Source: an uncultured Phycisphaerales bacterium (lineage in GTDB: Bacteria > Planctomycetota > Phycisphaerae > SM23-33 > FEN-1343). Taken from it: a stretch of 64,000 nt of DNA. The notes under the pieces were generated by a model. It made no database searches and was not told the DNA's origin. It worked only from the letters and a program-made list of their open reading frames with translations. This document shows, in pieces, positions 4,596 to 64,000 of this stretch; position 1 is the stretch's first letter, and each line of letters starts with the position of its first letter. The stretch is from contig CAWAWB010000015.1 in NCBI GenBank assembly GCA_963785635.1, positions 1 to 64,000 on the forward strand, given 5' to 3'. A program made the translations under genes and the position numbers.

Positions 4596-6168
4596 ATGTT
4601 TACTCTTGGCCTAACCGATAGCCCCGCCCTGCCGGCGGACACCATCACCATCTTTCTGGCGCTGGGCATCATCTTCATCCTGTTCGTGCTGCTGGTTTCG
4701 TTTTTGAGGCGGTACAAGCGCTGCCCCTCCAACAAGATCCTGGTCATCTACGGCAAGACCGGCTGCGGGCGCCTCCAAGTGCGTGCACGGCGGCGCGGCC
4801 TTCGTCTGGCCGCTGTTCCAGGCGTACGACTACCTGGACCTGGAGCCCTTCGTCATCCCCATCGACCTGTCCAACGCCCTCTCGCAGGAGAACATCCGCG
4901 TGTCGGTGCCCACCACGGTCACCGCGGCCATCTCCAACCAGAAGGGCATCATGGAAAACGCGGCCATCCGCCTGCTGGGCCTGACCACCCAGCAGATCCA
5001 GACGCAGGCGCAGGACATCATCATCGGCCAGATGCGCGCGGTCATCGCCACCATGAAGATCGAGGACATCAACCGCGACCGCCAGTCGTTCATGGGCAAG
5101 GTGAACGAGGCCGTGGCCGTCGAGCTGGAGAAGATCGGCCTGGCCGTCATCAACGTCAACATCCGCGACATCGAGGATGAGTCGGGCTACATCAAGGCCA
5201 TCGGCCGCAAGGCCGCCGCGGAGGCCATCAACCAGGCCAACATCGACGTGGCCGAGCAGGAAAAGAGCGGCCAGACCGGCGTGGCCCAGCGTAACCGCGA
5301 TCAGCGCGTTGCCGTGGCCGCCGCCATCGCCGATGCGGAAATCGGCGAGGCCACCGCCGCGCGGAACAAGCGCCAGCAGGTGGCCAAGCTGGATGCCGAG
5401 GCCGTCAACGCCGAAACCGCGGCCAATGCCCAGAAGGCGGCCTACCGCGCCAACCAGAAAGTGGCCGAGGAAGAGGCCCGCAACAAGGGCGAATCGGCCG
5501 CCAAGCAGGCCGATGGCTCCATTCGCGTGGCGCAGGAGCAGGCGCAGAAGAACGCCGAGGACGCCCGCGCCATCCGCGAGACCTCGCGCCTGAACGCCGA
5601 GATCGTCGTGCCCGCCGAGGCGGAGAAGAAGCGCATCATCATCGCCGCCGAGGCCCAGAAGGAGCAGACCATCAAGGTGGCCGAGGGCCAGAGGCAGCAG
5701 TCCATCGAGGTCGCCCAGGGCCAGGCCCAGGCCATGCTGGCCAAGATGACCGCCGAGGGCCAGGGCACGCAGGCCGTGCTGGATGGCAAGGCCACCGGCT
5801 ACCGCAACCTGGTGCAGTCGGCGGGCGACCCGCAGACGGCCACGGCCCTGCTCTTGATCGAAAAACTGCTGGAGATCTCCAACATCCAGGCCAAGGCGAT
5901 TTCCGAACTGCCCATCGAGAAGATCATCATCTGGGATGGCGGCGGCAACGGCGATGGCGGCGGCCTGTCCACGCTGGGCAAGCGCATCATGGGCGCACTG
6001 CCCCCCATGCACGAACTGGCCCGCCAGGTGGGCCTCGACCTGCCGGAGTTTTTGGGCAAGGTGGGTAAAGGCACGGAAGGCGGCCTGGGCGGTGCGGGTC
6101 CAAAGGATGGAAAGACGCCTCCCGCCGCGCCGGATGGACCGGCGAATAAGGTGATGCCGGTGAAGTGA
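4596..6168 (+). CDS. flotillin (SPFH/band-7 family, FloT/YqiK-like), reading frame interrupted near 4765-4785
   Basis: N-terminal TM anchor plus RRYKRCPSNKILVIYGKTG (frame of 4596). GGAAFVWPLF... and a long Ala/Glu/Lys-rich flotillin coiled coil (frame of 4783). The two frames join at a C-rich run. Confidence 0.8.
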
Positions 6169-6208
6169 GGCTCACGGGTCACGGCTTACGACTGGGCTGT
6201 GCTTTTTA

Positions 6209-6264
6209 CCCCTCCCCCTTTTACGGGGGAGGGTGGCCCGAAGGGCCGGGTGAGGGTTCTTCGG
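6209..6264 (+). repeat. 55-bp double-hairpin repeat element, copy 1 of 3
   Basis: Sequence cccctcccccttttacgggggagggtggcccgaagggccgggtgagggttctt. Near-identical copies at 41611-41667 (+) and 49304-49357 (reverse complement). Confidence 0.85.
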
Positions 6265-6370
6265 TCGCATGCCCTGACGTCGCGTTCTTCTGCGATGTGC
6301 AGGCGTGAAATAAAGGAACAGCTGAGGCTTACAGCTTAAGGCTTAAGAAATGCGTCCAAAACTGATTGAC

Positions 6371-6769: not shown

Positions 6770-6782
6770 AAATCGTCCTCGA

Positions 6783-13262: not shown

Positions 13263-14592
13263 ATGGGCCAGCAGGAGACAATCGGCATCGCCCTGGTCGG
13301 CTGCGGCACGGTGGGCAGCGCCGTCGTGCGGCTGCTGGTGCGCGACAACGAACTTTTGACCCGCCGCGCGGGCGTGCGGCCGCTGCTGCGCCACGTGGTG
13401 GATGTGGATTTCACCAAGGCCCGCCAGGCCGGGGCCGATCCCGCCATCTTCCGCAAGGATCTCGCCGAGGCGCTGGATGATGTGCAGACCCGCATCATCG
13501 TCGAGCTGGTCGGCGGCACGACCTTCGCGCGCACGGTCGTGGAGCGCTCGCTCAAGGCCGGCAAGCACGTCGTCACCGCGAACAAGGCGCTACTGGCCCA
13601 CCATGGCAACGAGCTGTGGGCTTTGGCCCGCGCCAACGGCGTGTGCATCGCCTTTGAAGGCAGCCTGCGTGGGCGGCGTGCCGGTGATCGGCACGTTGCT
13701 CAACGGCCTTTTAGCCAACGATATAGAGGCGATGTACGGCATCGTCAACGGCACGTGCAATTACATCCTGTCCAACATGTCCGCGCACGGCGCGCGCTAC
13801 GGCGATGTGCTGCTCCAGGCCCAGCAGGCGGGGCTGGCTGAGGCCAATCCCTCGCTGGATGTGCAGGGCACGGACTCCGCGCACAAGATCGCCATTTTAG
13901 GCGCACTGGCCTTCGGCCAGCGCATCGACTTCGACAAGATCCACATCGAAGGCATCGACAAGCTGGATGTGGCCGACATCCGCTACGGCCAGGAACTGGG
14001 CTACACGGTCAAGTTGCTGGCCATCGCCGAGCGGCTGGACGAAGGCGTGAGCCTGCGCGTACACCCCTCGTTCATTCCGGCCACTCATCCGCTGGCGCCG
14101 GTGTCGGGAGCGTTCAACGCGCTCTCCATTTTCGCCCACGCCACGGGCCACACGCTGTATTACGGGCGTGGCGCGGGCGGCATGCCCACGGCCTCGGCGG
14201 TGGTGTCGGATATCCTGTCCATCGGCCTGGATATCGCCCCGCGGCAGTTCCGCCAGTTGGGCATCTGGCCGGACCGGTCCAGGCAAGCCAACCAGTTGCC
14301 CATCGAGGATATCCGCAGCCGCTATTACCTGCGCATCACCGGCGAAGACCGGCCGGGCGTCTTAGGCGCGATCGCCGATGTGCTGGGCCGGCACGAGATT
14401 TCCTGCGCCAGCGTGCTCCAGCACGAGTCGCCATCCCCCGCGGGAGATGGCGTCCCCGTTATTATCACGACCTACGAGGCGGTCGAAGGCAATATCGCCA
14501 ACGCCCGCGCGGAAATCGACGGCCTGGAGAGCGTGAAGGCGCCCACGGTCATCATCAGAATTGTCATGGAGCACGAGGAACCAGTCGTTTAA
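13263..14592 (+). CDS. hom: homoserine dehydrogenase with C-terminal ACT domain, frame interrupted near 13660-13670
   Basis: NAD-binding GIALVGCGTVGSAV, catalytic core and ACT domain. ORFs 13263.. and 13402..14592 are one gene split by a small indel at FEGS|VGGVPVIG. Confidence 0.85.
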
Positions 14593-14593
14593 G

Positions 14594-14762: not shown

Positions 14763-15975
14763 ATGAAATACGCATTGATCATCATCGACGGCGCGGCGGA
14801 CAATCCTCTGCCCGAACTGGGCAACAAGACTCCCCTCGCCGCCGCCCATAAGCCAGTGATCGATTCCATCGCCCGCATGGGCCGCCTGGGCACCGCCAAA
14901 AACGTGCCCGAGGGCATGCATCCCGGCAGCGACGTGGCCATTTTAAGCATGCTGGGCTACGACCCGCGCCACCTGCTACAGCGGCCGCGCGCCCCTGGAG
15001 GCCGCCGCGCAGGGCCTGCACATCGAGGATGATGACTGGGTCCTGCGCTGCAACCTGGTGACCATCGTGGACGGCGTCATGGCCGACTATTCCGCCGGCC
15101 ACATTTCCAGCGAAGAGGCGGCCAAGCTTATCGCCGACCTGAACGCGGAACTGGCCTCCAGCGTGGTGCACTTTTATCCCGGCGTCTCCTACCGTCACCT
15201 TTTAACCATCAAGGCCGACCTGGAAGTCTCCACCACTGCCCCGCACGACATCATGGGCCAGAAGGCCGCCGACCACCTGCCCCAAGGCCGCGGCAAGGAG
15301 CTGCTGACCGACCTGATCCAGCGCAGCGCGCCCGTGCTGGCCGCCAGCGAGATCAACGCGGTCCGCCGCGACCTGGGTGAAAATTTAGCAACCTCGATCT
15401 GGCTGTGGGGCCAGGGCAAGCGGCCGCAGCTCCCATCCTTCCAGGCCAAATACGGCCACAGCGCGGCGGTGATCACCGCGGTGGACCTCGTGCGCGGCAT
15501 TGCCAAACTGACCGGCATGGATCTGATCGAGGTCCCCGGCGCCACCGGCTACGTCGATACCAACTACGCCGGCAAAGGCGCGGCCGCCGTGGCGGCGCTC
15601 GACAATCACGACATGGTGATCGTGCATGTCGAGGCGCCCGATGAGTGCGGCCACAACGCCGAACCCGAACTGAAAAAGAAATCCATCGAGGACATCGACC
15701 GCTTAATCGTCGCGCCGGTTTTAAAACACCTGGAATCGCAGGGCGACGACTGGCGGATCTTGATCGGCCCGGACCACCCCACCCCCTGCCAGGTGCGCAC
15801 CCACACCACCGATCCGGTTCCGTTTGTAATTGCCGGCAAAGACATACCGAATTTGGTCAGCCGGCCGTTTGATGAGTCCACCGCCGCGCAGGGCGATTTC
15901 CACATCGAATTCGGGCACGAGTTGATGGAATATCTGCTCAAGCCCGCACCGCCGCGCGGCGGCAGGACTGCCTGA
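14763..15975 (+). CDS. apgM: cofactor-independent phosphoglycerate mutase, archaeal-type (ApgM), frame interrupted near 14970-14985
   Basis: MKYALIIIDGAADNP... metalloenzyme N-terminus and PhosphMutase C-terminal region. The two ORFs join at YDPRH|YSGRAPLEAAAQGLHIEDDDWVLRCNL. Confidence 0.8.
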
Positions 15976-16376: not shown

Positions 16377-16780
16377 ATGGATACGCCCAATGCACAATCC
16401 GGCGCTTCCCTGCCTCACAGCGGGGTTGTCGCGCTCCTGGTACGCGATCCTGGAATCGCAGCCGCCGCTTCACCGCTGGCCGCCGACGGCTTCACCTGCC
16501 GCAGAACAAAGACGTCTGGAGAACTTCTGGCCGCGCTGGGTGAAGGACGCTCGCCGCGGTACTGGAGGTAAGCCATGATCATGCCGATTCGATGGCCGCC
16601 CTGCGGACCGTTGGCGCAAATGCAAACGTCGTGACGGTTGCTCGCGACGTCACGGCGGATCTGGCGCTGGAGCTGATTCGCATCCGGCTGGGCGCCTTTT
16701 GTCTGATTCCGGAAGAAACGGATGACTCCTCACCACCCTTCGCAACATCATCCGCCGCGAGAAAATGCAGCGGTTCATGA
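16377..16780 (+). pseudogene. atypical or degenerate receiver (REC-like) domain gene, frame interrupted near 16550-16560; Glu at the expected phospho-Asp position
   Basis: Joined translation ...GVVALLVRDPGIAAAASPLAADGFTCRRTKTSGELLAALGEGRSP|AAVLEVSHDHADSMAALRTVGANANVVTVARDVTADLALELIRIRLGAFCLIPEE follows CheY-fold spacing, but the conserved acidic residues are altered. Confidence 0.3.
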
Positions 16781-17422: not shown

Positions 17423-19403
17423 ATGGCACGGCAGATGACGGTGGGCAAGAAGATCGCGGCGGGATTCAGCATCGTTCTGGTGTTGCTCGTAGTCGTAGGA
17501 ACGATAGCCTGGTTTGCCTTGCACCAGGCTTCCGGCGGTTTTAGCCGCTTTGGAGTCATGGCGCATATCTGCAACGTGATGGGCGACCTCAAGGCTCAGA
17601 TGCTGACGCTCCAGATGGACGTCAAGGACTACCTCATCAGCAACTCCGACAACCATAAGCAGGACTTCGACACGTGCATCAAGGCCATGCGCGACAACCT
17701 GGAAAACACCAGGAAAGAGGTCAGCAGCCCGGAGCAGCTGGCGCTGCTTTCGTCCGTGGATAAACAGGTGACAGAATACGAAACGGTATTCGGCAAAGTC
17801 GTCGCGCTGACCGGCGAGCGCAACAGGCTCATCTTCAACGTGCTGGGACCCGCCGGCGTGAAGATCGAAGAGCACCTGGTTGCGCTGATGACCGCGGCCA
17901 ATGCGGACAACGACGTGCAGGGCGCGTACCTGGGCGGCCAGGTGGTCCGCTTCATGCTCTCGGGCCGGATGAGCGCCTGGCGTTTCATCCAGAAGCCCGA
18001 CCAGTCGCACGTCGATGCGGTACACAAGCACTGGGCGAACCTGGAGGAGCAACTGGCCGCGCTGGATAAGCAGCAGACCAACGCCGACCGCCGCAAGCTG
18101 GTGGCCGCCGCTCAACCTCTGGCGGCGGACTACATCAAGAAATTCGATGAGCTGGTGGCCGACACGAATGAGTGCAACGCGCACGTGGACAATCTCATCC
18201 AGCACGTCGGACCGGAATTCGAGCGCGTCACGACCGACATCGATAAGGCTGTCCGGAAGGACAAGAACGCCCTGGGCGACGCCGTGGCCTCCAACAACGC
18301 CATGGCGGCCCTGGTCATCACCATCGTCGGCGGCGCGGCCGTCGCGCTGGGTGTGCTCATGGCCACGCTGATCACGCGCGGCATTGCCAGGAAGCTGCGC
18401 CAGGTGATCGAGGGATTGACCAGCGGGTCTGAGCAGACCTCCTCCGCCGCGGGCCAGGTTTCCTCGGCCAGCCAGTCGCTGGCGCAGGGCGCATCGGAGC
18501 AGGCCGCGGCCATCGAAGAGACCACCTCGAGCATCGAGGAAATGGCCTCCATGACCAAGCAGAACGCCGGCAACGCCAACGAGGCCAAGCGCATGGCCGA
18601 TGTGGCGCAGGCAGCCGTGGAGAGCGGCACGGCGGCCATGACGCGCATGTCCGGCGCGATCGAACAGATCAAGAAATCCGCCGACCAGACGGGCAAGATC
18701 ATCAAGACCATCGACGAGATCGCCTTCCAGACCAACCTGCTGGCCTTAAACGCGGCCGTGGAAGCGGCCCGCGCGGGCGAGGCGGGCAAGGGCTTCGCCG
18801 TGGTGGCCGAAGAGGTGCGCAACCTGGCGCAGCGCTCGGCCGAGGCGGCGCAACACCGCGTCGCTGATTGAAGAGTCGCTCAAGAACGCCGAGAACGGCG
18901 TACACATCACGGGCGAGGTGGCCAAGTCGCTGACCGAGATCGCCACGGGCAACAAGAAGAGCAACGAGCTCATCCGCGAGATCGCCGCGGCCTGCTCCGA
19001 GCAGGCGCAGGGCATCGAGCAGGTGAACGTGGCGGTGAGCCAGATGGACCAGGTGACGCAATCCAACGCGGCCAACGCAGAAGAATCCGCCTCGGCCTCG
19101 GAGCAGCTTTCCGCACAGGCCCTGGAGCTCAACAGCATGGTGCAGCAACTGGCGGCCATGGTGGGCGGTGCGAATGCGGCTTCGGCAACCTCCGCTGGAA
19201 CATCACCTGCGGCCAAGGTGTACGGCGGCGCAGCCGCGCAGCGTGCAGCCTCAGCCGGCGTGAAGGGATCGGGCAAGGCGGCGGCCAAATCGGCCCGCGC
19301 AGGGTTGTCGGCGGAGCATAACATCAAGCTGCCGCCGCCCTCGGGCCACTCGTCCAAGGATGAGTTCGTGCTGCAGGAATCGGAAGAGATTGCAAAGTTT
19401 TAG
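17423..19403 (+). CDS. methyl-accepting chemotaxis protein (4HB sensor, TM, HAMP, MCP signalling domain), frame interrupted near 18850-18860
   Basis: Highly conserved MCP signalling hairpin ([44 protein letters not shown]). Continues in the next frame as [30 protein letters not shown].... Confidence 0.85.
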
Positions 19404-19684: not shown

Positions 19685-22038
19685 TTATTTTCCCGCCGTC
19701 ACGCCCTCCACCTCGCGAATCACGGCGATGAGCGATTCGGAGCTGCCGGACTTGGTGAGATAGGCGCTGGCGCCGGCGCTCAGCATGGCGGCCGCGCGGT
19801 CGGCCTGGTCGTACATGGACAGGCCGATGATGTGGATATCCGGCTGCTCGGCATGGATGACTTTGGTGGCCTCCACACCGTCCATAATGGGCATGCTGGC
19901 GTCCATGAGGATGACATCCGGGTGCAACCGCCGCGCCTGGTTGACTGCCTCCTGGCCGTCGCCAGCCTCGCCCAGGATCTCGATATCCGGCTCCTCCCGA
20001 AGCAGCGTGGCCAGGCCCTGCCGCATCACGGCGTGATCATCGGCCAGCAGCACGGAGATTTTTTCGCCGGCCACACGATGCGCGGCGATCAGTTCCTGCT
20101 TCTCGCCATCGGTCAAGCCGACCGCCGCCTTCAACGACGCCTCCGCCTTGGCCGAAAGGCGGCTGGGCGCGATCAACGTCACGCGCGTGCCCTTGCCGGG
20201 GGCGCTGTCGATATCCAGGCAACCGCCCAGGAGGAAGAGCCGCTCGCGAATGGAGAACAGGCCGAACCCGCCGGTGGCGGATTCCTGGTCGCCGGCGATC
20301 TGCTGGGCATCCCTGAAGCCTTTGCCCTCGTCGCTCACGACAATCTCCACATAATCTTCATCCACGCGCGACAACTTCACGGTCGCCTTGTCCACGCCGG
20401 CGTGTTTGACCACGTTGAAGAGCAGCTCGCGTATGGATTGGAACAACAGGATCTGGAGGTCCTTGCGCTCGAGCTGAATGTCTTCGACGATCTCCAGGTG
20501 TACGCTGAGGCCGTGCTTTTCCTGCATCCAGCGCGCCAGCCATTCCAGACCGGCGATCAGGCCGGCCTCCTTCAGGATCGCCGGGGAGAGGCTCGGCCGT
20601 CAACGCGCGGCAGGTCCTGATCGATTCCTCCGCCAGTCCCATGGCGCGCTCCAACTTGCCCCGCAGCGCATCGCTGGCCTGGCGGAGAGATACCTCCAGG
20701 CCGAACTTGATGCCTACCAGGAGCTGCTGGAGATGATCGTGCAGCACCTGCGCCAGCCGCTGCCGCTCGGCCTGTTCCACCATGGTCAGTTCGGAAGCCA
20801 GGCGGGAAAGCTGCGCGCACCCGGTGCTGAAGCTCGCACGTGCGCTCCTGAACGCGATCCTCCAGCTCATTGCGTGCCTTGACCAGGGCATCCTGGGCCT
20901 GCTTGTAGGCGGTGATGTCCCGGATGGCCGTAAAGCGTGTGGAGGAATCGTATGGAAAAGGCTTTCCGTGAGTCTCCACGTAAATCGCAGAGCCGTCCTT
21001 GCACAGCATGGGATGGTCCAGGTGGCTCTCCAGACCCCGAGAGATATTGTGCATGATGCGAGCGCGATCCGGCGGCCGAACAAACCGGGCGATCGGCTGG
21101 CCAATCAGTTCCTCGCGCCGATACTTTAACATTCCGGCCAGTTGGTCATTGATATCCACGTACTTTCCGTGATGGATGATGGCAATACCTTCAAATGTGG
21201 CCTCCGCCAGGCGGCGAAAGCGTTCCTCGCTGCGCTGCACGGCCTCCTGGGCCTGCTTGAGAGCGGTGATGCATTGGGCGGTGCCCGTCATGCGCACCGG
21301 CCTGCCGGAGTCATCGTAAATAGCCCGGCCGCAGGCTAAGATCCAGTGGATGCTCCCATCATCGTGCATGGCGCGGAATTCAACCGAATAATAAGCATGG
21401 CGATGAATCGCCTCTTCAACGCTGGTGCGAACCTTAGGCACATCCTCAGGATGCACCCGGCTGAAAAACACCTCGTAGGACTTGGGCGTATCTGTCGGAA
21501 GCCCCAGCAGGCGGCTGGCCTGATCACCCCATTTCAGATCATTGCCGACCAGGTCCCAGTCCCATGTCCCCACTTCAGCGGCCTCGGTCGTCAGCCGCAG
21601 CCTTTCCTCACTACTGGCCAGCGACTCCTGCGCGGCGGTCCGTTCGGCGAGTTCCCGGGCCATCTCATCGCGGTGGATTATGGCTTGCCGGCGCGCGGAG
21701 CGAATAATGTGCCCAAAAAGCACAATAAACGTAAACAACACGAAGTACGTGACAACCGAGATCGCATCACCGACATCGACAAAAGTCCAGGTGTAGCGAG
21801 GTATGTCAAAAAAATAATCGCCCACAAAATAACCGAGGATACCGGCCAGAATGGATGGTCCCAGACTGCCGAACCAGGCTACGGCGACTACAGCCATCAG
21901 GAACATAAACAACGGCGCGCGCGGACCCAGATACGGGTCCAGCAGCAACCTCACCACAAAAGCGATTGCAACTGCCGAAATGGCCGCAAGATACCCCCCC
22001 ACCAGTGCACAAGCTTTGGATTTGCGCATTACACCCAC
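19685..22038 (-). CDS. hybrid sensor kinase (DUF4118-like membrane N-terminus, 2 x PAS, HisKA_3 H-box, HATPase_c, C-terminal receiver), two frame interruptions near 20583-20595 and 20812-20825
   Basis: Three overlapping minus-strand ORFs join into one protein: ...ELEDRVQERT | SELTMVEQAERQRLAQVLHDHLQQ | ...LIAGLEWLARWMQEKHGLSVHLE...NVVKHAG... + REC (ISVLLADDHAVMRQGL...). Confidence 0.75.
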
Positions 22039-25186: not shown

Positions 25187-26330
25187 ATGAGCGACGCTCA
25201 AAGGCCCACAATCTTCCTCACCGCCGCGGAAACCAGCGGCGACATGCACGGCGCAAACCTCATCCGCGCGCTATCTGCGCGGCTGCCGGATGCGCATTTT
25301 GTCGGCGTCGGGGGTCCTGAGATGCGCGCGGCCGGATGCGAGCTTTTAGAGGATGTGGTCGCGCACGCGGCCATGGGGCTGGATGCGGCGGTGAAGTTCC
25401 CCTACTTTCGCCGCGTGATCAAGACTGTGGCCAAAGAGATGGCCGCGCGGCGGGCCAGCGTGCTTGTACCTATCGATTCGCCCGGCCTGAACTGGCACAT
25501 GGCGAAGGCGGCGAAAAAGCTGGGGGTGCCGGTGATGTATTACGTCTCGCCGCAGGTGTGGGCCTGGGCGCCGTGGCGCGTGAAAAAGATGCGCAGGCTG
25601 ACGAATCACGTGGCCTGCCTGCTGCCCTTTGAGCAGGAATACCTGCGCGCCTGCGGCGTGGCAGCCACGTTTGTGGGCCACCCGATGTTCGATCATTTGC
25701 CCGCGCGGTCTGCGCAGCCGCGGCAGAATTCCTGAGGATGGGAGTTGGCGGATTTTGCTGCTGCCCGGCAGCCGCAAAAAAGAAATTCTGCGGCACGCGG
25801 CGGCCATGGGGGGGGCGGCGGCCACGATCCGGCAAGCATTTCCCAAGGCGACTTTGCAGATGGCCGTGGCGGACAGCCGCGCGGCGGAGCTGGCGAAGGA
25901 AAAGTTGGGCGGTGATATCCCTATCATTTCGGGGAGAACTTACGAGTTGCTGGCGGGGGCGGATTTTGCCATCGCGGTCTCGGGCACGGTGACGCTGGAG
26001 GCGGCGTACCTGGGCGTGCCGATGGTTATCTGCTACCGCGCAAACCGCGTGGTCTTTGAGCTCTTCCGCCACACGCTGGCTTCCACGCGGTATTTTTCGC
26101 TGCCGAATATTCTGGCGGGGTGCGAGCTCGTGCCGGAGCTGATGCCTTGGAACGGCCGCGCGGAGGCGATTTCGGCGGCGGCTTTGCACTTGCTCGGCAA
26201 TCCGCAGGGACTGCTGGAAGTTTCCCACAAGCTGATGCAGTTGGCCGATCCTTTGAAAGAGCCGCTCTCCAAGCCAACCTGTCAGGCGGTGGCCGAGCTG
26301 GTAATCCAGACGATGCGCGCTGGAGCGTAG
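25187..26330 (+). CDS. lpxB: lipid-A-disaccharide synthase, frame interrupted near 25720-25730
   Basis: N-terminus IFLTAAETSGDMHGANLIRAL. C-terminal ILLLPGSRKKEILRH motif in the second frame. Confidence 0.8.
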
Positions 26331-44677: not shown

Positions 44678-45855
44678 CTATAGCCCAGTGTCATAAAGCT
44701 TCACGATCTCATCGATGACGGCATCATCTACGCCGGGCCGCAGGCCGCACACTTCCGCCAGCATGGCCTTAACGCCCTTGGCGGCAAGCTGGGCCTGGAA
44801 CTTTTCATCCGCCGGAAACATCCGCCCCGCCTCATCCACCGCCTTGAACTTCAGGCGCAGGCAACGGTCCGACAAATTGGCGACACATTACCGCCGGTCG
44901 ATTGCACCAGGCGCAGCGCGCCGATGCACCGGTCATCCGGCGCCAGCTTGCGGTACAAATCCCGGCCGACGCGATACACCGAATCATTCAGCGCCACGTT
45001 GCCAAACCGCCGCAAGAGGTCCTCCACGTGCTCCCGCTGATTGGGCTCGTTGAATTCCGTGGGATATCGCTTAATCAAGGCCAGCGCCGAGGCCCACATC
45101 GCCTCCCGCGCGGCGGCGAGAATCTTCGGATCCGCAACGCACTGCGGCAAGAAGTGTTTGCCCGCCAGATGGCCGTGATACGCGGCGGTGGCGTGGCCGA
45201 GGTTGTGAATAAAGAGTTTGCGGTCCACGTAAGCCGCAAAGTTATCTTTCAGCACCAGCCCCGGCACGTTGGGGATTTCGCCCATGAAGGCGGCCCTGTC
45301 GGCGATGATCTGGTTATAGGCCTCCGCCCAAATGACCAGCGGGTCCGCCGCCACCACTGCCGCGGGCATGATGGGCACCATCTTGCCGATCGAAGTTTCG
45401 ACCAGGCCCACGGAGGACATGTCAAACCCGTCGGGCAGCAACGGCATGAGTTTTTCGCGCATCATCGCCGCCGCGCCGCGAAGGTTCTCGCACATGATGA
45501 TGGAAAGCGGCCTTCCCTTGCGGCGGGCGATGCCCGCGGCGATCACATTGGCCAGGCGCGGCAGCACCGCCGGCCCCACCGCAGTGGCCGCCACATCCGC
45601 CTCGCTAAGCGCTGCGGCCACGGCGGCAGTATCGCGGGCATCGAGGGCGCTGACCTTATCCACATGAATGCGGTCCGGCGCCCCCGGCGGCAAGCTATCT
45701 TTGACGATCACATCGTAGCCGCGCCGCTGGTTGAGGGCCTCCACCAGGGATGTGACGGCATCCACAAAAATGACCTCATAGCCGGCCTTGGAAAAAAGCT
45801 GGCCCACCAGCGACCGGCCGATATTGCCGGCCCCAAACTGAACAATCCGCTTCAT
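44678..45855 (-). CDS. mannitol-1-phosphate/polyol dehydrogenase family protein (MtlD-like), frame interrupted near 44865-44880
   Basis: N-terminal MKRIVQFGAGNIGRSLVGQLF Rossmann motif. C-terminal 65 aa sit in the adjacent frame (ORF 44678..44875). Confidence 0.6.
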
Positions 45856-46355: not shown

Positions 46356-47563
46356 ATGAACAAGATTCGAGTCTCCATTGTGGGCGTGGGCAACTGCGCC
46401 TCCTCCCTGATCCAGGGCATTTATTACTATGGCGATCAGTTCGCCAAGGGTGACAAGTCGGGCGTCGGCCTGGCCCACTCGATGCTGGGCGGCTACGCCC
46501 CCGGGGATATCCAGATCGTCGGCGCCATCGACATCGACGCCCGCAAGGTCGGCAGGCCCCTGCACGAGGCCATGTTCGCCCAGCCCAACAACACCAAGGT
46601 CTTCTACGACAGTTTCCAGACCGATGGCGTGGTCGTGCAGATGGGCAACGTCCTGGACGGCGTGGCCGAGCACATGGCCAACTACCCCGAGCGACCAGCG
46701 GTTCGTCGTGGCCGAACGGCCCTTCCGCCACCCGGGCGGAGATCGAAAAGCTCCTGCGCGACACCGGCACGGAAATCCTGATGAACTACCTGCCGGTGGG
46801 CTCGCAGAAGGCCGCGGAGTTCTACGCCGAGTGCTGCCTGGCCACGGGCGTGAGCCTGATCAACTGCATCCCCGTGTTCATCGTCTCCAACCCCGTCTGG
46901 GGCCGCCGGTTCGCCGAGGCCGGCATCCCCTGCATCGGCGACGACATCAAGGCCCAGGTCGGCGCGACCATCGTCCACCGCGTCCTGGCCCGGCTGATGC
47001 AGGAGCGCGGCGCGAAGATCGACGCCACCTACCAGCTCAACACCGGCGGCAACACCGACTTCCTGAACATGCTCAACCGCAGCGCCTGGGCTCCAAGAAG
47101 ATCTCCAAGACCGAGGCCGTGCAAAGTCCAACTCGGACGTGCCCCTGCCGGCTGACCAGGTGCACATCGGCCCGGCCGATTACGTGCCGTGGCAGAAGGA
47201 CAACAAGGTCTGCTTCCTGCGCATCGAGGCCAGGGGCTTCGGCGGCGTGCCGCTGAACCTGGAAGCTGCGGCTGTCGCGTGGAGGATTCGCCCAACTCCG
47301 CCGGCGAGACCATCGACGCCATCCGCTGCTGCAAGCTGGCCCGCGAGCGCGGCGTGGCCGGACCGCTGGAGGCGGTCAGCGCCTATACCATGAAGCATCC
47401 GCCGCGCCAGTTTGCCGATTATACGGCCCGCGAGATGCTGGAGGCCTTCATCAACAACGGCACGGACGCGCGGTACGAGGCCTCGCCTGCGGATGTAGCC
47501 CAGGCGGCTTCAACCTCCATCCCGCGCCCCAGTGCGAAACCGGCGAGAATGGCGAAGGCTTAA
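46356..47563 (+). pseudogene. ino1: myo-inositol-1-phosphate synthase (bacterial/archaeal Ino1 type) disrupted by at least 5 frame changes (about 46690, 46725, 47090, 47132, 47275); pseudogene or error-dense region
   Basis: Recognisable MIPS segments lie in all three frames in order: MNKIRVSIVGVGNCASSLIQG..., [35 protein letters not shown]..., [57 protein letters not shown], ...ETIDAIRCCKLARERGV.... Confidence 0.6.
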
Positions 47564-53068: not shown

Positions 53069-53082
53069 ATGGATCGAAATAG

Positions 53083-54606: not shown

Positions 54607-54654
54607 TATGCTCTGTTGCCGTGACGTTTGCGGCCGCGACTAGATGGGAATCAC

Positions 54655-56077
54655 ATGAGCAAGAACCATTTCAATATCGTGCTGCTCGGCTCGGCCCGGG
54701 CGGCTACATCGCGGCCATCAAGGCGGCGCATCTTGGCGCATCCGTGGCCGTGGTGGAAAAGGCGCAACTGGGCGGCACCTGCCTCAATAACGGCTGCATT
54801 CCCTCCAAGGCGCTCCTGGCCTCGGCGGCGATGATGCACGAGATCGGCGAGGCGGGCAAGCTCGGCATCAAGGTTGCGGGTGAAGTCATCTGCGACTGGA
54901 CGGCCGTGCAGCAGCGCAAGGACCGCACGCTGGCCCGCCTGCGGCAGGGCATCGCCAATCTCTTCAAGGGCGGCAACATCGAGCTTTTCCAGGGCACGGG
55001 CAAGCTGGATGGCCCGGGGCGAATCGCCGTGATGGACGCCAAAGGCCAGACGCAGATTATCACCGCCGACAAAATCGTGCTGGCCACGGGCTCGGTGCCT
55101 TCGCGGATCCCCGGCTGGCCGACCGATCCGGCGCTGGTGTGCACCTCGGATGAGGCGCTGCACTGGAAGGACCTGCCTGGGCGCCTTTTGATCGTTGGCG
55201 GCGGCGTCATCGGCTGCGAATTCGCGTGCATGATGCAGGCCGTAGGCGTAAAGGTGACGGTAGTGGAAATGATGCCGCGACTTTTGCCGGAGATGGATAG
55301 CGACCTGTCCGCCGAGCTAACCAAGGTCTTTAAAGCGCGGCAGATCGCCTGCCACGTGGGTACGAAGGTTGCGGATCTCTCTATCGCGGATGGCCGCGTG
55401 AAAGCGCGGCTGGATAATGGCCAGACGATCGACGCCGACCGCGTGCTGGTGGCCACGGGCCGCCGCGCGGCCACGCAGGATATTGGCCTGGAAAGCGTGG
55501 GACTCACAACCGACCGCGGCTTTATCCGCGTGAATGACCGGATGGAAACCGCCGTCAATTGCATCTATTGCATCGGCGACGCCAACGGCCGCATTCTGCT
55601 GGCCCACGCGGCCAGGCGCAGGGCGAAGTCGCCGTGGCCAATGCGCTCGGCGCAAATCGAATCTTCGATGCCCCGGTGCCGCTGACCGTGTACACGTTCC
55701 CGGAGATTGCCGGCGTGGGCCTGACCGAAGAGCAGGCGGACAAGCGGAACATTCCCATCTCCGTGGGCGCGTTCCCCATCGGCTACCTGGGCAAGGCCAT
55801 GGCGGTGGGACACGGCGAGGGCATGATCAAGGTCATCCGCGACCACTCCAATGATGCGCTCTTAGGCGTACACATGTTCGGCCACAACGTGACGGAGGTA
55901 ATTGCCTGCACCACGGCCATGCTGGGCGAAAAGGCCACGGTGACTGAACTTGCCGAGACGATCTTCGCCCACCCGACCATCTCCGAGGCGGTCAAGGAGG
56001 CCGCCGAGGATTCCTTTGGCCAGGCCATCCACCTGCCGCCGAAGAAGGTGGTTTCAGTCATGGCGGGAGTCGTTTAA
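54655..56077 (+). CDS. lpdA: dihydrolipoamide dehydrogenase (E3), two frame interruptions near 54697 and 55612 (1-bp losses)
   Basis: FAD-binding MSKNHFNIVLLGSG|PGGYIAAIKAA, redox-active GGTCLNNGCIPSK, NAD-binding region, and dimerisation domain in the third ORF (...AHPTISEAVKEAAE). Confidence 0.85.
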
Positions 56078-58141: not shown

Positions 58142-61100
58142 CTACACCACGCGAATGATGAAATCCGTGAAGCTCTCGGGGGTCGCATCTGTCGGATTGG
58201 GCCAGGTGTAGCTCGTCGTGGCATCGTGGTAATTCAGCCGCGTAATGGAGTTGGCTGCCAGGCCGAACTTCTTGCCGGTGTTGTCGAACTTCGCGTAGGC
58301 GATATTCATCGTCCCCAGCTTGGCCGCCACGATATCGCTGTTGATGAAGCTGTCCACGTGGCTGCGGGATTCCAGCAGGCCGCGCACGGTCACCGAGCCG
58401 ATGCTCGCATACGGGTTAAAGACGGTGTCATCCAGCGGTGTCGCGGGCAGTCCGGCCAGCGCACTTGCGGCGAAGTCGCCCGCGTCCAGGTAGCCGGCGT
58501 AAATGTTGCTGTCGGTTATGGTTCCCGCCTGGATGGACCCGATATTTCCGTTGGAGAGAATGTCGCTGGACATGATCGAGCCGGCCACCTTCAGGCTGGA
58601 TAGCGCCCGCGTCGGCGCCGCCTCCTGGCTGAATATGCCGGTCCATTGATTCACATCGGCACCGACCGTAATGTTTCCGGCGGATATAATCGTCCACTGG
58701 CCAGACAGGTTTCCGAAGATATATGCCGCGCTGACTGAACCGTGCTCGACATCCAACGTGGCGGCGAAGCTGCCATCCGCGGCGCCGCTGTTTCGGTTCA
58801 ACCTCGTGGCGATCAGGCCGACGGTTCCACTGGAGGTCAGTGTTCCGGTAAACCAGCGGCCTACCGTCAACGAGCGCACGTTGCCGACAGTCCAATCACC
58901 CACACTGACGGTGCCGGCGATGGATGCCGTCAGCGCCGGCATGCTTGCGCCGCTGCCATTCAAAGTGACATCCGGCTGGAAATCCCCCGGGTGCCCGCTG
59001 GCGCCGGTAACCATCAGGTTGGCCAGGGATGGAGCCGTAATCGAGTCTAACTGACCACTGCTTTGGCCGTCCAGCCAGCTTACGGCCTTCAGCGATTTGA
59101 TGGCCATATCGGAATCAATCTGAAGGTCCTGCACATTGCCCAGCGTGATGGCCGTGGCGAGCTTGCCCGCAGGAAACGCGTGCGTCTGGCCGTCAGAAGC
59201 GAGCTTCTGATCGATGGAAAGCACGTCTTCCGCACCGGAAGCCGCCGTCACGTCGCCCAGCACAATCTGCGCGGCCGTGCCGTTAATGGTCATATTCCCA
59301 TCCAGCACGACGTGAGGGGCGACAATGGATGCCACACTGCCATCCGCGCTGATCTCGCCGATGGAGGTGGTCGTGCCAAACGGCGTGGTGATGGTGACGT
59401 GCGTCCTGGCTGTTGCGCCGCCGATATCCAGCGCATCGATCTTGCCGGTGGTTGTGGCGTCCATCGTCAACTGAACATATCCGCCGCCGGAGATGGAGAT
59501 GGTAACCGGGGTGCCATTCTCATCGGTGACCGTTGCGCAGGCCACCGATATGGACCAGACGGCTCTGCTGGCCGGCATCCAGGGCGGTCAGCCCCGCCGC
59601 GCCATTGGCCAGCAGCCAGAGCGGCTGCTGGGTGGCGGTATTGATGCTGACCTGGCGGCCGGCGTAGCTATAGTCGTTAGCCGTTGTGCCATCGGATGCC
59701 TTAACGCTCCAGGCGCTCTTATACGTCGATTGGATCACAATGTGAGAAAGATCCAGCAGGCTGAGGATGTCAATCCCGCCCTCGTATCCGACCATGGCCG
59801 TCGTGCCGGAAACCGACAGCGTGGGCAGCACATTCTTGGCCGAATAAGTATGCGCCAGAAGGCCATGAGACGCGGGTGGCCGAAAGTCGAAACGTTATAG
59901 ACGCGCAGGCCATCGCTGCAAAGGACATACAACCTGTTGCCGTCCATGGCGGAGGCGAAGATGGCCTTTTTCACCAGGACCTGGTCAATCTTTACGTACG
60001 CACTGCCGGAAAGAATCTCGTTTTGGTCACCTTCAAAATTAAGGATAGTTCGTGTTTGCGACTGGCTCTTACTGTCGAAAGATACGATGTATCCATTGAG
60101 ATCCACATCCAGGACGTAGCCGTTGCTGACATAGACCCCCGTCGCCCAGGGAATATTCAAAGTTATATTCTCGGGCACTGGGGGAAGTTCTCGTATTTTA
60201 TGGAGGTGGCAAACGAAGGATATAACGATACGATAACCCGCAGGGGCTTGCGGGCATCCTGGGTGGCATTCGGCGTGGGGTCATGGCCAAGCACCTTCGG
60301 GTTGGTCACATCCAGCATGTACAGGCCCTGGCCCGGCGTGCCCACATAAGCAATCCGGTCCACCTCGGAGCCGAACTGCGTGGTCGAGCGGTCCTCAACC
60401 GTCACGGAATCGGCGTCCATGCTGAAAGTATCGAGATACTGGAGAACATTCGTCGTGTCGGTGGGATTGATCCTCAGGCTGACCAATCCCTGCGCACCGG
60501 CGGCCAGTAACAGCACCTGGTATGGGCCATTCGCATCCTGGTAGGTCAGCAGCTTCATGTCGTTAATTGAAAGCGAAGTACTCGAACTGGGGTTCCAGGC
60601 GCCGACGGGCGTGGGATCGGAGTTATTCGTCGTCAGATCGGAATTCTTATAGACCTCAAGCCCCTGGTCGGGCGTGCCCACAAACAGGAAATCGTCGGTC
60701 TGCATGGAGAAAACGGCCGTGTCATCCAGGTGCCATTGGGGCTGGACGACCTGGGTGGGACCGGGCGTGTTCGGCGCAAAAACGATGTTGAAGTTCTGGC
60801 TCTTGGGACGCTGCGTCGTATTGGTGGTCTGGTCCAGGACATTGTTGACATCCTGTTCTTCCCTGACCGTCACGTTCACGGTCACCACGCCGTAGAAGCC
60901 ATTCGGCGCGGTGATGGTGAAGATTCCGCTGTCGTTGGTTACCGTCGGTTCCTGCACCGTGCCGGTCATGCCGCTGATGATCTGGATCGAGCTATGCACG
61001 ACCTGGTCATCGGCGACGTTCAGCTTGAAGTAGGCCACATTGCTCGTCACCGCCGTCTGGTCGGCCGAAGTATTGCCGCTGGCATCCGTCAGCGTCAGTG

Positions 61101-64000
61101 TGTCGAATGTGGGCCTGCTGGCGCCCAGGCAGCTTACATAGAACTGAAAGACGGGCGACACCACGTTCCCGCCATCGGCTGACTGCGTCCACACCCATAT
61201 CCAAAACGGCTGAAGGTTTTGGCTGTAGTCGGATGGAAGCTCGACCTGCATCATGTACACGGCCAGAGACTTGTTCTTGCCCTGATAATTATCGGAGATG
61301 GTCCGGACCTTGATCTGGACATCGCTGCCCCCCGCGTCGGGCACATACGAATCGGCCGTCCTGACCACGATCCCCTGGCTGTCAGGTGCGGACTGGTCGC
61401 CCGATAGGTTCGTTGGATTCGTCGACTCGAAGCGCATCTCGATTTCCGGCTGGTAGGCGCTGAGGTCCTGATTGGTGAGGTTATCACTGCCGTCGGAGAC
61501 AGTGTTCACCATCTGAAGCTGGTTAACGGAGGACTTCGCCAGGATGCTGATGGTTTTTGTGACCGCCGTGCCACTGGAGTCGGTAACCGTAATCTGCACC
61601 TGCGCCGGACCGGTGAAGTTCTTGTCCGCGCTGACCATCAGGACCGCATCCTGATTATTCTGGCTGGAATTGATGATCTGCACGGATTTGAGCCGCGGCT
61701 CCGCAACGGGCTTGCCGCTGGCATCCGCTGGCCTATCAATAATCGCATTTAATGTATCCCAGCCGCTGATCATCTGACCGAAAATCGCATACCCGCTGGC
61801 GTTTACGGGCTCCTGCGTAATGAAGAAGCGGCAATCGCCGGTGCCGTCGCCCCCGTTGTTGGCCATGGCCAGAACGCCCGAACCCGCAAAGCTAAGATTT
61901 TTGTAGACCGTCGTGGTTTCAAAGGATGTGTTAATGTCGCCCAGCCCCGAAGAGCCCGTGCCATCGCCTTTCACCGCGTCGCCCGTCAGGAAAACCTCCC
62001 CAGGCACAACGCCGTACACCGGCACATTCGTGTAAAAGGCCGGGTGTGTGCTGTCAGGGGCGACCAGCTTGCCGTTGACGACGGCCTCTTGGGCCAGATC
62101 GATAAACCGCTGCACCGCGGCGGGCGCGAGGCTCTTATACAGCATCACGTAGATCGTGCCGAGCGTCCCATCATCCACCAGCGTCTCGGGAATGCCGTCG
62201 CCGTTGTTGTCCACCAGGTGCGTGCTGTCAAAGGTCAGCTTGGCGTAGACAACGGGCTGTTGCTGCTCCCAGGTGAAGGTCAGGCCGGGAGTATCGCTGG
62301 TCACGCTGTATGTCAGGCCCTGGCCAGGGGCATCCGTTCCTGCGATGGGGATGGCCAGTTGCGTGCCATCCGTGGGCGCCTGGAACACCGAGCCGGGGAT
62401 GTTCATGCCGGTCTGGAGGCCCGCGATCTGGAAGCTCTGCTCCTGGCTGGGCTCATCCGGCAATTCATTTACGCTCGCGCTGACCGTGGCATTGAAGGCC
62501 GAGCCGTCGTACGAGGTCGGCAAGGTCACGTGCAGAGTCCAGCCGCCGGCCGCATCGCCGTCGACGGAATAGTTAATGGCGCCAGGCCCCTGGTAGTTAT
62601 TTGACAAGGTGATTTGCAGCGTCCGCACAAAGTCTGGATCATCCACAAATCCTATGTTCAGCGGAATATTGAGCTGGCCGCTGGCGGCGTTGGAAATATC
62701 CGCTATGGGCGGCAGGTCAAATTGCTTCAGATTGACCGTGAAGGTCATGGACGAAACCGACGTGCCGCCCACAGGCGTAACGCTGACCGTCACATGCGCG
62801 GTGGCGGCGGTATTGGAGACTGGAGGCCGTCAGCACCAGCGTGTTGGCATTGTTGTTAACAGTCTGGAAACTGGCAGTCAGTCCGGATACAGCGGAACCG
62901 TCATCGGCCAGGATACTCGTTACCGTGGGGTTGTAATACTGTTGAATCTCGATCGGCAGGTTCAGCGTCTGGCCATCCAGCAGCACCTGGTCGGCAACCT
63001 GGGTAATCGGGCCTGAAGTAGCCGAAAGATTCTGTACCACCGGCGTGGCGTTGCCGAAATTGGTCAAGTCGGCCTCGATGATCACCGTGAAGGTTGAATT
63101 GTCATACAGGGCCCCCGGCGTCAGCTTCACCTGCCAGTTGCCATTGCCCAGATTTGTGTTCTGCACCAGCATCTGGTCGGCGGGATGGTAATTGGAAAAG
63201 GCCGTCACATTCAGGTTAAAGCCCTGAGGGCTGTTGTAGGTCACCGTGTACTGCTGGCCGGGCTGCTCCAGATCGATCGAGGAAATCCCCGAGATGGACG
63301 GCAGGTCCGGCTCGGTGGATTGAATGACAAAGGTCTGCGTCGTTACGCCGCCATGGCCATCATCCAGTTTTACCGATATCTGCTCCGAACCGCTGAAGCC
63401 GGCATCCGGCGTGATCAGAAGGGAGCCGGCCTCATTGTTGTGGACGATGGTCACGGACTGAAGTTTCGGCGTGTCCAATGGTTTGTTGTTGGAATCGGCC
63501 TGCCGGTTGATGATGTCGGTAATCACGTCCCAGCCCGAAATGACCTGGCCGAAGATGGGATACATCTGGGCAGGGGTTTTCGTGCCGTCGCCACTGGCCG
63601 AGAACGGCGCATCGGTAATGAAGAACTGATCGTTGCCCGTGTTAGGAACCGCGTTGCCGCTTTGATCTCCCTGCTCCGCCAGGCCCAGCACGCCCACGCC
63701 CTCATAGCCAAAAATGCCGAGGTTATTGTCGCCGGCGGTGGCGCCGTAAGAATCAGTAACGTTCGGCAAGGGGCTGGTGCCCGTGCCGTCGCCGTTGGTG
63801 GCGTCGCCGGATTGAATGATGAACTCCGGAATGACGCGGTGCACCAGCACATTCGTGTAGAAAGCCGGGTCGGCGGCGGTGGGATTCTGGGCCTTGCCGC
63901 CGGAGGTGATGTACTTCGTCGCCAGCGTGATAAACTGCTGCGCGGCCGTGGCGCCGGCAGTCCCAAATAAACTCGGATCATCAAATAACTGGATCACGAC
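58142..64000 (-). CDS. giant secreted/surface protein (more than 1,900 aa, continues beyond the window end) containing two cyclophilin-type PPIase-like domains; at least 4 frame interruptions (about 62825, 60170, 59850, 59565)
   Basis: Contiguous minus-strand ORFs 62717..63997, 60163..62793, 59735..60178, 59520..59831 and 58142..59578 join end to end. Two cyclophilin-like segments (...AFYTNV.VH/YGV.PG.....GD...GDGTG.S......FITQ/D.P.....Y.IFGQ.ISGWD). Thr/Ser/Gly/Asn-rich beta-repeat-like regions. Confidence 0.65.

Follow-up and report, generated by a model that had tools for sequence, protein, structure and literature searches.

Frame breaks in the window

The window analysed here, a 64-kb stretch of DNA from a Phycisphaerae planctomycete, contains about 40 genes, and tiny indels, about 25 to 30 in number, interrupt 15 to 17 (~40%) of these otherwise sound genes. 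Frame breaks were located by a homology-free, six-frame codon-usage Viterbi analysis, in which same-strand frame switches were taken as breaks, by the coordinates of Pfam and NCBIfam matches, and by frameshift-aware alignment to intact orthologues. The orthologues stem from L081 and L082, two genus-level relatives from other metagenome assemblies that show 82-87% amino-acid identity (87% for the E1 of L081). A preliminary description had counted about 27 breaks; homology and statistics recover 23-25 breaks across 15 genes, while for 2-4 more (in an anti-sigma gene, in the gene of a giant protein at 62.8 kb and in a "REC-like" region) the basis is coding statistics or visual inspection only. 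The breaks are as follows.

4755..4775, + strand: flotillin (Band_7/FloT); one extra base, frame class 0 to 1; Viterbi switch at 4762
13664..13665, + strand: hom; an extra C (AGCCTGCG; AG-TTGCG in the relative)
14966..14978, + strand: apgM; one extra base; aligned to the intact 402-aa L082 orthologue
16544..16726, + strand: "REC-like" region; candidate frame changes near 16555 and 16724
18848..18853, + strand: MCP signalling domain; probable 2-nt loss, GGCGC(GC)AAC
20813..20818, - strand: hybrid histidine kinase, break 1, between PAS and HisKA_3; Viterbi
20575..20599, - strand: hybrid histidine kinase, break 2, between HisKA_3 and HATPase_c; stop-bounded interval and domain order
25602..25732, + strand: lpxB; one extra base; stop-bounded, best placement 25725-25732
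29622..29623, + strand: GH-like secreted protein; one extra base, CAG[A]CTC, not a homopolymer
33982..33990, + strand: second SBP_bac_5 solute-binding protein; one base missing; -1 at 33989/90 in the protein-to-DNA alignment
37582..37587, + strand: oppC-like permease; one base missing; -1 event at 37586/7 by 5/5 homologues
38673..38683, - strand: PEP-CTERM protein; one G missing, CCG-AG on the minus strand; three-frame reading
41149..41296, - strand: FtsX/LolE-like permease; one base missing near 41170-41200; Viterbi and stop bounds
42949..43177, - strand: putative anti-sigma factor; one base missing near 43157; coding statistics only (Viterbi, overlapping open frames)
44854..44856, - strand: mtlD-like gene; one base missing; aligned to the intact 392-aa L081 orthologue
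46686..47278, + strand: ino1; at least five frame changes, seven single-base events in the best alignment
54691..54697, + strand: lpdA, break 1; GGG to GG within the GxGxxG motif; three-frame reading and intact 476-aa orthologue
55612..55615, + strand: lpdA, break 2; one base missing, CCAG-GCGCAG, not a homopolymer; aligned to the intact orthologue
59531..60176, - strand: giant surface protein, three breaks; -1 near 60174, -1 near 59854 and +1 near 59543
62720..62829, - strand: giant surface protein, break 4, near 62820; coding statistics only (Viterbi, overlapping open frames)

The minus strand carries E1 and the genes of the hybrid kinase, MtlD, FtsX, the anti-sigma factor, the PEP-CTERM protein and the giant protein. 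The Viterbi analysis switched frame at 4762, 13666, 14974, 16724, 18850, 20576, 20815, 25732, 29622, 33991, 37583 and about 41170, and in the second part of the window at 43157, 44882, 46689, 46725, 47077, 47121, 47262, 55604, 59531, 59856, 60176 and 62820. Protein-to-DNA alignment placed the events at 13665, about 14970, 29623, 33989, 37586, 44855, 54692 and 55615, where the preliminary description had 13665, 14978, 29622, 33982, 37582, about 44870, 54697 and 55612, respectively; in the gene of the giant protein, frameshift-aware alignment gave 60174, 59854 and 59543. Furthermore, the Pfam pieces of the broken genes are collinear and lie in different frames, and after correction they merge into one full-length match each. 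All three kinds of evidence thus uphold the interruptions where they had been described, and the placement proved very accurate. The intact controls, E1, E2, DeoR and a 567-aa protein, gave 0 events each in the frameshift-aware alignment; E1 and E2 had already been described as intact genes between the broken ones.

Evidence for individual genes

In the first half of the window, correction of the flotillin frame extends the Band_7 match from HMM positions 18-176 to 4-176, and the NCBIfam FloT model then matches in a single stretch that spans the junction (25-488 against 6-474 of 477). In hom, NAD_binding_3 lies in a different frame from Homoserine_dh and ACT, and the corrected protein shows 87% amino-acid identity to the intact 442-aa L082 orthologue, as judged by DNA and protein-to-DNA alignments; a site at GG 13659 was dropped, as the relative's sequence leads to 13665. 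In the case of apgM, the PhosphMutase matches (HMM 1-34 and 33-170) are in different frames. A 298-aa fragment of ApgM, 100% identical and derived from the window's own 88,297-bp contig, is present in public protein data, which means that the deposited record itself holds split genes; this contig also encodes a protein identical to that of 49394-51862 on the minus strand of the window. The two parts of LpxB (HMM 1-171 and 188-344), also in different frames, become a single 1-344 stretch of 280.6 bits upon correction, and the corrected protein gives an unbroken alignment with E. coli LpxB (5W8N; 6-373 against 4-380). The GH-like protein has numerous homologues that align in a single stretch from about query residue 47 to 586, spanning the junction at residue 101, and 5/5 homologues place the +1 event at 29623.

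The kinase matches HisKA_3 only in the middle-frame piece (20601-20768), and its corrected form has a complete DUF4118-PAS-PAS-HisKA_3-HATPase_c-REC architecture. In the MCP gene, the MCPsignal matches (HMM 3-89 and 104-172) are in different frames and become one 3-172 stretch when corrected. The break described at 18855 is thus present, at 18848..18853, and its nature can be refined: a loss of 2 nt is more likely than a gain of one, since the alignment with Tsr is gapless over 236 residues only when a residue is restored at the junction. The "REC-like" gene, to which one break had been ascribed, was not recovered as such: its receiver-like pattern runs across three frames by eye only, the Viterbi switch at 16724 may be a mere gene boundary, and neither the pieces nor the three-frame composite had any Pfam or NCBIfam match.

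In the second half, the second SBP_bac_5 protein is matched at HMM 2-92 and 104-348 in different frames, which correction turns into a single stretch, and a change from frame 2 to frame 1 is seen in more than 55 homologues. Metagenome relatives of this protein, at most 50% identical, support both its break and that of the oppC-like gene, whose BPD_transp_1 match grows from 1-149 to 1-180 when corrected. It had been proposed that a one-base repair restores an exact motif in the PEP-CTERM protein, and this is borne out: with one G added at about 38683 the protein ends in ...APEPATLALMAVGAAAVLRRKRL*, and it scores 24.7 bits with PF07589, above the cut-off of 20.7. The corrected FtsX/LolE-like permease matches the LolE model NF008357 in a single stretch across the junction (40-390 against 33-406 of 414). 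In the mtlD-like gene, the Mannitol_dh_C match stops at HMM position 123 of 190.

The best ino1 alignment has +1 events at 46686, 46717, 47128, 47138, 47268 and 47278, and a -1 event at 47081. The five breaks described earlier are therefore a minimum, and the number is 5-7. The corrected protein, without stops, is 81.5% identical to the intact 390-aa orthologue and matches Inos-1-P_synth from 1 to 107 of 107 in a single stretch. The second break of lpdA is supported by a frame switch in more than 50 homologues. For the giant protein, whose orthologue is a single 2613-aa gene in L081, the C-terminal 978 aa of that orthologue are collinear with four frame pieces. Three of the four breaks claimed for this gene are thus established by orthologue alignment, while the fourth, near 62820, has coding statistics as its basis, without homology support, the L081 locus compared stopping short of this region. 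The same holds for the break in the putative anti-sigma factor, for which overlapping open frames and coding statistics point to 43157, and for which there were zero family matches and zero relatives in the metagenome scan. This gene lies downstream of that of an ECF sigma factor.

Some additional candidate events were rejected. The OEP gene seemed to have a +1 event at 22272, close to its C-terminal end, but this was an artefact of forcing a diverged tail into the alignment, and compensating ±1 pairs in the nucleotide alignments of E1 and lpdA were likewise artefacts, none of them being present in a codon-aware alignment. The in-frame stop between 27957-28244 and 28248-28928 does not interrupt a gene: downstream of the stop a second Ysc84 protein starts, with a separate lipoprotein signal. 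Finally, the two ORFs that share a frame at 740-1987 encode distinct ClpP paralogues and do not form one interrupted gene.

Lesion spectrum and sequence context

The 23-25 homology-verified lesions are all of ±1 nt, save the one probable -2 in the MCP gene. Judged by frame direction, insertions (12-16) are no rarer than deletions (11-13), and deletion bias is absent among the lesions. The breaks had been described as lying mostly in G/C runs, a context that had been used as an argument for sequence errors. Our data do not support this. The largest homopolymer within ±2 nt has a mean length of 1.96 nt at the breaks, compared with 2.31 nt at background positions; runs of at least 3 nt occur within ±2 nt at 3/27 breaks against 31% expected; and of the coding homopolymers of at least 5 nt, including a G8 in lpxB and a C8 in E2, 142/142 are in frame. 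Homopolymer context is thus no more frequent than chance, and the argument built on it, one of three, was wrong.

Another context is enriched. CTGCG/CGCAG is found within ±6 nt of 9/27 sites against 3.4% expected (p=1.7e-7, best of 680 k-mers), and the union of CTGCG/CGCAG and GCGCA/TGCGC at 12/27 sites against 5.7% expected (p about 1e-8). This trend persists in the alignment-located sites alone; the context is present on only about 45% of the sites, and no single motif covers most of them. A common short context at the break sites fits a systematic miscall. The events are also clustered, with a variance-to-mean ratio of 1.9 in 2-kb bins and seven events in 600 nt of ino1.

Comparison with relatives and selective constraint

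The comparison with closely related genomes that the preliminary description had called for shows hom, apgM, lpdA, ino1, mtlD and the gene of the giant protein to be uninterrupted there. The intact L081 orthologues are those of lpdA (476 aa), ino1 (390 aa), mtlD (392 aa) and the giant protein (2613 aa), and those of L082 are hom (442 aa) and apgM (402 aa), which are adjacent, as in the window. Among GTDB representatives the best amino-acid identity was 76%. The collections searched held no assembly of the same species, and with the closest relatives only 82-87% identical, a very recent real event would be compatible with this comparison.

The ten genes aligned to orthologues contained, after correction, zero in-frame stops and zero larger out-of-frame indels. 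The dN/dS values of broken genes (0.15-0.21) compare with those of their intact neighbours (0.12-0.28), and the amino-acid identities to relatives are 76-87% and 65-87%, respectively, so that relaxed selection or raised divergence was not seen in the broken genes. Even ino1, with its 5-7 indels within 600 nt, shows no raised divergence (dN 0.13, dS 0.62).

Origin of the frame breaks

The breaks are very probably small indel errors left uncorrected in the consensus sequence of the deposited assembly, and the genes of the organism would be intact. What we observe is the lesions, with their type and context, as well as the intactness of the genes and their selective constraint; from these we infer both that the lesions would be missing from the real DNA and what kind of platform may lie behind them. 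The preference already expressed for consensus errors over mass pseudogenisation is supported by the intact relatives, the absence of stops, the equal dN/dS, the lack of deletion bias and the tight clusters, and further by the hits in genes of central metabolism and the envelope. The errors would mostly involve one base each, with insertions and deletions in about equal shares, and be linked to GCGC/CTGCG-type sequence and not to homopolymers; their spread is uneven, with local clusters such as that in ino1. Each of them would shift the frame, and gene callers would consequently output fragments.

Fragmentation of genes by long-read indel errors is described as a documented artefact (PMC12007338, PMC8812927). 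The window resembles long-read (nanopore or PacBio CLR) assembly errors, as far as they are described there, in its ±1-nt indels, at about one per 2 kb, in the collinearity of the pieces and in the full-length matches restored by correction. It differs in that homopolymers are not over-represented at the breaks and in that every long coding homopolymer is in frame. With homopolymers at the breaks no commoner than chance predicts, and with the long ones all correct, the profile is not that of unpolished nanopore, 454 or Ion Torrent data with their classical errors in homopolymer length; its unusual character, with all 142 long coding homopolymers in frame, counts against the explanation that we favour. 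The pattern points to reads that are prone to indels and give low or uneven coverage, and a context-specific or base-modification-linked miscall is possibly a contributor. Base modification has been reported to induce nanopore read errors, in the form of strand-specific mismatches (PMC11610603). The short recurring context in the window would be in line with a methylated motif that disturbs basecalling (PMC11610603); unlike the errors as reported there, the lesions are indels, and the context is present at only about 45% of the sites.

It is very unlikely that the breaks reflect another artefact, for instance a consensus across co-assembled strains, or damage from a polishing or correction step. 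The clustering (variance-to-mean 1.9 in 2-kb bins), the avoidance of homopolymers and the preference for particular k-mers are all atypical of plain long-read noise and would fit such an origin. Strain mixing, on the other hand, usually gives rise to substitutions, not frameshifts, and the sequence holds nothing that separates such an artefact from a low-coverage long-read consensus.

Very recent, massive gene decay, for instance through a mutator event or a shift to host restriction, that made about 40% of the genes in this region fresh pseudogenes, is very improbable. The lesions are present in the deposited sequence and protein set, there is a DDE_5 transposase as well as a low-GC island in the vicinity, and no same-species genome in the collections searched contradicts decay. 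Moreover, the large share of interrupted genes (15-17 of about 40) recalls pseudogene-rich, degrading genomes, such as those of Mycobacterium leprae and Sodalis. However, genuine gene decay in bacteria favours deletions, and indels that arise naturally are found above all in homopolymers, whereas the window shows neither bias; there are zero nonsense codons against at least 25 frameshifts, and no larger deletions. Unlike in degrading genomes, dN/dS is not relaxed, being equal in broken and intact genes, the 5-7 indels of ino1 come without excess substitutions, and the relatives' genes are intact. Decay would also need the joint loss of the core metabolic genes hom, apgM, lpxB and lpdA.

Least credible, to the point of being negligible, is a scenario of real lesions in genes that are still expressed because ribosomes are programmed to shift frame, or transcription slips, at the break sites: as in prfB, dnaX and IS transposases, the product needs a frame change, the frames downstream are open and conserved, and the CTGCG/GCGCA context at the breaks is above chance, but +1 and -1 shifts would both be required in roughly equal numbers, seven of them in one 390-codon gene, which is implausible; the shifts are not conserved, the relatives' orthologues being unshifted, single open frames; and, with runs of at least 3 nt within ±2 nt at only 3/27 sites, an X XXY YYZ slippery heptamer or a long A/T tract is excluded at most sites.

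In general, the probability that the indels are truly in the DNA, as ±1 frameshifts in ~40% of the genes of a free-living-type Phycisphaerae lineage, hom, apgM, lpxB, lpdA and ino1 among them, and with a preference for CTGCG/GCGC-type sites over homopolymers, is very low. If they were, they would imply a hitherto unknown sequence-specific indel process together with explosive gene loss, or a genome-wide recoding that restores frames.

Consequences for annotation

Consensus errors of this kind are biologically ordinary, and they matter for annotation rather than for biology. The genes affected include hom, apgM, lpxB, lpdA and ino1, which belong to central metabolism and the envelope. A gene catalogue, a completeness estimate or a metabolic reconstruction based on this genome will mislead, as about 40% of the window's genes would be fragmented or missing, with apparent losses of homoserine dehydrogenase, phosphoglycerate mutase, LpxB, the E3 subunit and inositol-phosphate synthase. 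The remedy is polishing or frameshift-aware annotation. A polisher that targets homopolymers would leave the errors in place, since they spare homopolymers and occur preferentially in GCGC/CTGCG contexts. Gene fragments, such as the 298-aa piece of ApgM, have already entered public protein collections.

Reading-frame breaks in conserved genes

The broken genes were compared with intact orthologues using a protein-to-DNA aligner that was written for the purpose and allows single-base frame shifts. As the preliminary description had proposed, we turned to close relatives, and hom, apgM, lpdA, ino1, mtlD and the giant surface protein gene were all found intact in contigs of genus-level relatives from other metagenome assemblies. 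L081, a 63.9-kb scaffold that shares synteny with the window in the E1 region, carries lpdA (the E3 gene of the 2-oxoacid dehydrogenase; 476 aa), E2, the DeoR regulator gene, E1, ino1 (390 aa), mtlD (392 aa) and the giant protein gene (2613 aa), all intact, and L082 (k141_3380477, 56.8 kb) carries an intact hom (442 aa) adjoining apgM (402 aa).

Frame breaks located by frameshift-aware alignment (window positions)
hom: +1 at 13665 (to relative)
apgM: +1 near 14970 (to relative)
mtlD: -1 at 44855 (to relative)
lpdA: -1 at 54692 and -1 at 55615 (to relative)
giant surface protein, minus strand: -1 at 60174, -1 at 59854, +1 at 59543 (to relative)
ino1: +1 at 46686, 46717, 47128, 47138, 47268 and 47278; -1 at 47081
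SBP2, second SBP_bac_5 solute-binding protein: -1 at 33989 (more distant homologues)
oppC-like permease: -1 at 37586 (more distant homologues)

In the case of ino1, the five breaks originally read from the sequence stand as a minimum, as each of two close pairs may be one opposite event, but the best alignment has seven. Apart from the events at 47268 and 47278, the nucleotide alignment shows no difference across 27 nt, which favours two insertions there. No in-frame stop was present in any frameshift-aware alignment. Of the genes said to lie intact between the broken ones, E1 and E2 were used as controls and showed zero events, as did the DeoR gene and that of a 567-aa protein. Homology supports a total of 23-25 events in 15 genes.

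Furthermore, in several genes consecutive portions of one Pfam model were found on pieces in different frames, and once the pieces were joined where the breaks had been predicted, the matches became single, continuous and higher-scoring.

Pfam matches on pieces in differing frames, and after joining
hom: NAD_binding_3, then Homoserine_dh and ACT
apgM: PhosphMutase 1-34, then 33-170
MCP (chemotaxis signalling protein): MCPsignal 3-89, then 104-172; joined, 3-172
lpxB: model 1-171, then 188-344; joined, LpxB 1-344 (280.6 bits)
SBP_bac_5 protein: 2-92, then 104-348; joined, 2-348
ino1: Inos-1-P_synth 1-42, then 63-101; joined, 1-107
mtlD: Mannitol_dh_C ends at 123 of 190, at the break
hybrid kinase: HisKA_3 only in a third frame, between the PAS and HATPase_c pieces
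BPD_transp_1: joined, 1-180
Band_7: joined, 4-176

Full-length models also cross the junctions of the flotillin (FloT, 6-474 of 477) and of the FtsX/LolE permease (33-406 of 414). The GH-like secreted protein matches no Pfam family, but an exhaustive search gave hundreds of homologues that match in one stretch from about residue 47 to 586, spanning the junction at residue 101, and all five homologues used to place the +1 event put it at 29623. At the N-terminal break of lpdA, where GGG is reduced to GG, MSKNHFNIVLLGS in one frame is followed by GPGGYIAAIKAAHLG in the next. The proposed repair of the PEP-CTERM gene works as described: one added G gives APEPATLALMAVGAAAVLRRKRL*, and the corrected protein scores above the PF07589 threshold. 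In the MCP gene two nucleotides have probably been lost: alignment with E. coli Tsr is gapless across 236 residues only if the junction residue is restored; the junction DNA is GGCGCAAC, where GGCGCGCAAC would fit. Homology support was not found for the anti-sigma break or for the giant-protein break at 62.8 kb. In the "REC-like" region a receiver-like pattern can be read by eye over three frames, and neither the pieces nor the composite matched a Pfam or NCBIfam family.

The breaks were also sought independently of homology, using codon log-odds trained on the window's long open genes and a Viterbi path through six coding frames and a non-coding state, in which frame changes were penalised and stops heavily penalised. 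Over the whole window, this path made 24 same-strand frame changes that coincide with the breaks of the preliminary description, for example at 13666, 29622 and 37583 (read there as 13665, 29622 and 37582) and at 20576 and 20815 in the hybrid kinase (20588 and 20818); four sites in the giant protein and five in ino1 likewise agree. The other same-strand switches are true gene boundaries only (36561, 40299 and 43549). Stop codons confine each break to a short interval, such as 29600-29634 or 44854-44887.

Sequence context of the breaks

The view that the indels lie mostly in G/C runs proved wrong. Within ±2 nt, the longest homopolymer averages 1.96 nt at the breaks versus 2.31 nt in the background, and runs of at least 3 nt occur at 3 of 27 breaks versus 31% of positions. 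All 142 coding homopolymers of at least 5 nt in the window, including a G8 inside lpxB and a C8 inside E2, are in frame. Well-resolved events outside homopolymers include GC[T]GCG, TCG[C]GTG, CAG[A]CTC and CCAG-GCGCAG. When all 680 3- to 5-mers were scanned without preselection, CTGCG/CGCAG came up within ±6 nt of 9 of the 27 sites, where 3.4% would be expected (p=1.7e-7). GCGCA/TGCGC is the next most enriched, and the union of the two is present at 12 of 27 sites, against 5.7% expected. The trend holds for the alignment-located sites alone (CTGCG at 5 and GCGC at 8 of 19). A modified-base motif and a k-mer bias of the basecaller or polisher are both possible causes. The events are clustered (variance-to-mean ratio of 1.9 in 2-kb bins), with seven in 600 nt of ino1 versus 0.27 expected.

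Assembly errors or real lesions

Taken on the sequence evidence, the breaks are very probably an assembly artefact, in line with the earlier reading of consensus indel errors rather than mass pseudogenisation. Firstly, close relatives have the genes intact. Secondly, the lesions are small indels only, with no nonsense codon among them; even if nonsense mutations made up only one in three of real inactivating lesions, at least 25 frameshifts with none would be very unlikely. Thirdly, relative to their orthologues the broken hom, apgM, mtlD, ino1 and lpdA have dN/dS of 0.15-0.21 and the intact E1, E2, DeoR, 567-aa protein and OEP genes 0.12-0.28; ino1 is unremarkable in dN (0.13) and dS (0.62) despite its 5-7 indels. 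Fourthly, natural indels in bacteria are deletion-biased and concentrated in homopolymers. Here gains and losses of a base are about equally frequent (16 insertions to 11 deletions with the best ino1 model, 12 to 13 with the minimal one), and since the lesions show neither bias, we count this for error. Finally, as had been argued from essential genes, joint loss of hom, apgM, lpxB, lpdA and ino1 is implausible when the rest of the genome looks like that of a free-living organism, with chemotaxis genes, ABC transport, a PEP-CTERM protein, ClpP, trigger factor and complete E1/E2. Together with these arguments, the shared context and the clustering are consistent with a systematic miscall that depends on coverage. 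Programmed frameshifting can in practice be ruled out, because the shifts run in both directions, lack slippery sequences, are not conserved and number as many as seven in one gene.

The textbook error of long-read-only assemblies is the homopolymer error (PMC8812927), from which the profile of the window differs. It would be closer to the consensus noise of low coverage, to which base modification may add a component (PMC11610603). The genome requires polishing or frameshift-aware annotation, and a repair aimed at homopolymers alone would be of no use.

The window and its nearest proteins

The window has a G+C content of 61%, and its closest proteins come from Phycisphaerae (Planctomycetota) metagenome-assembled genomes. 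Tepidisphaeraceae/Phycisphaerales representatives share 76% identity with the fused alpha-beta E1 (49394-51874, minus strand), for which a larger protein collection gave one 87% match and one 100% match, the latter on an 88,297-bp contig (NCBI and ENA), almost certainly the record of the window itself. A 298-aa apgM piece, 100% identical, lies on the same deposited contig, so the record already spreads gene fragments.

Other features of the window
740-3939, minus strand: trigger factor, then a tandem pair of ClpP paralogues sharing one frame
6100-10250: G+C of 0.50-0.57 (versus about 0.61), coding signal nearly absent
8194-9738: 514-aa ORF, no Pfam match
10061-11539, minus strand: intact DDE_5 transposase
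26443-28928: two neighbouring Ysc84/SYLF-domain paralogues
49394-56077: 2-oxoacid dehydrogenase cluster, divergent

A single stop codon and 15 nt of spacer lie between the ClpP genes; each is full-length, and the reading as one interrupted gene was rejected. The low-G+C stretch, which contains the 514-aa ORF and adjoins the transposase, may be a mobile or foreign island. The Ysc84/SYLF proteins are 62-66% identical to each other, and the first has the domain twice. In both, the Pfam match covers only about the first two thirds of the model (HMM 2-85 of 127); this looks natural for the subfamily and not like a truncation. The dehydrogenase cluster is divided by strand, with E1 (823 aa) and the DeoR-family regulator on the minus and E2 and lpdA on the plus strand, a layout also present in L081.

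Short arrays of tandemly repeated units, 7 or 9 nt long, occur as inverted pairs in many intergenic regions.

Inverted tandem arrays
8179-8559; 9143-9395; 14593-14735; 19467-19685; 23785-23875; 35335-35458; 37718-37750; 38498-38623; 47725-47791; 51877-51906; 56096-56258

Examples are CTACAGT (x4.9) opposite GGCTGTA (x7.4) and TTCTTGGTG (x4.2) opposite GCACCAAGA (x4.1), and the unit ATTGCGG occurs at six or more places in the window. The arrays may be terminators or REP-like elements built of heptamer repeats; for the three pairs tested, long hairpins were predicted (z-scores of -7.7, -11.0 and -4.4 versus shuffles).
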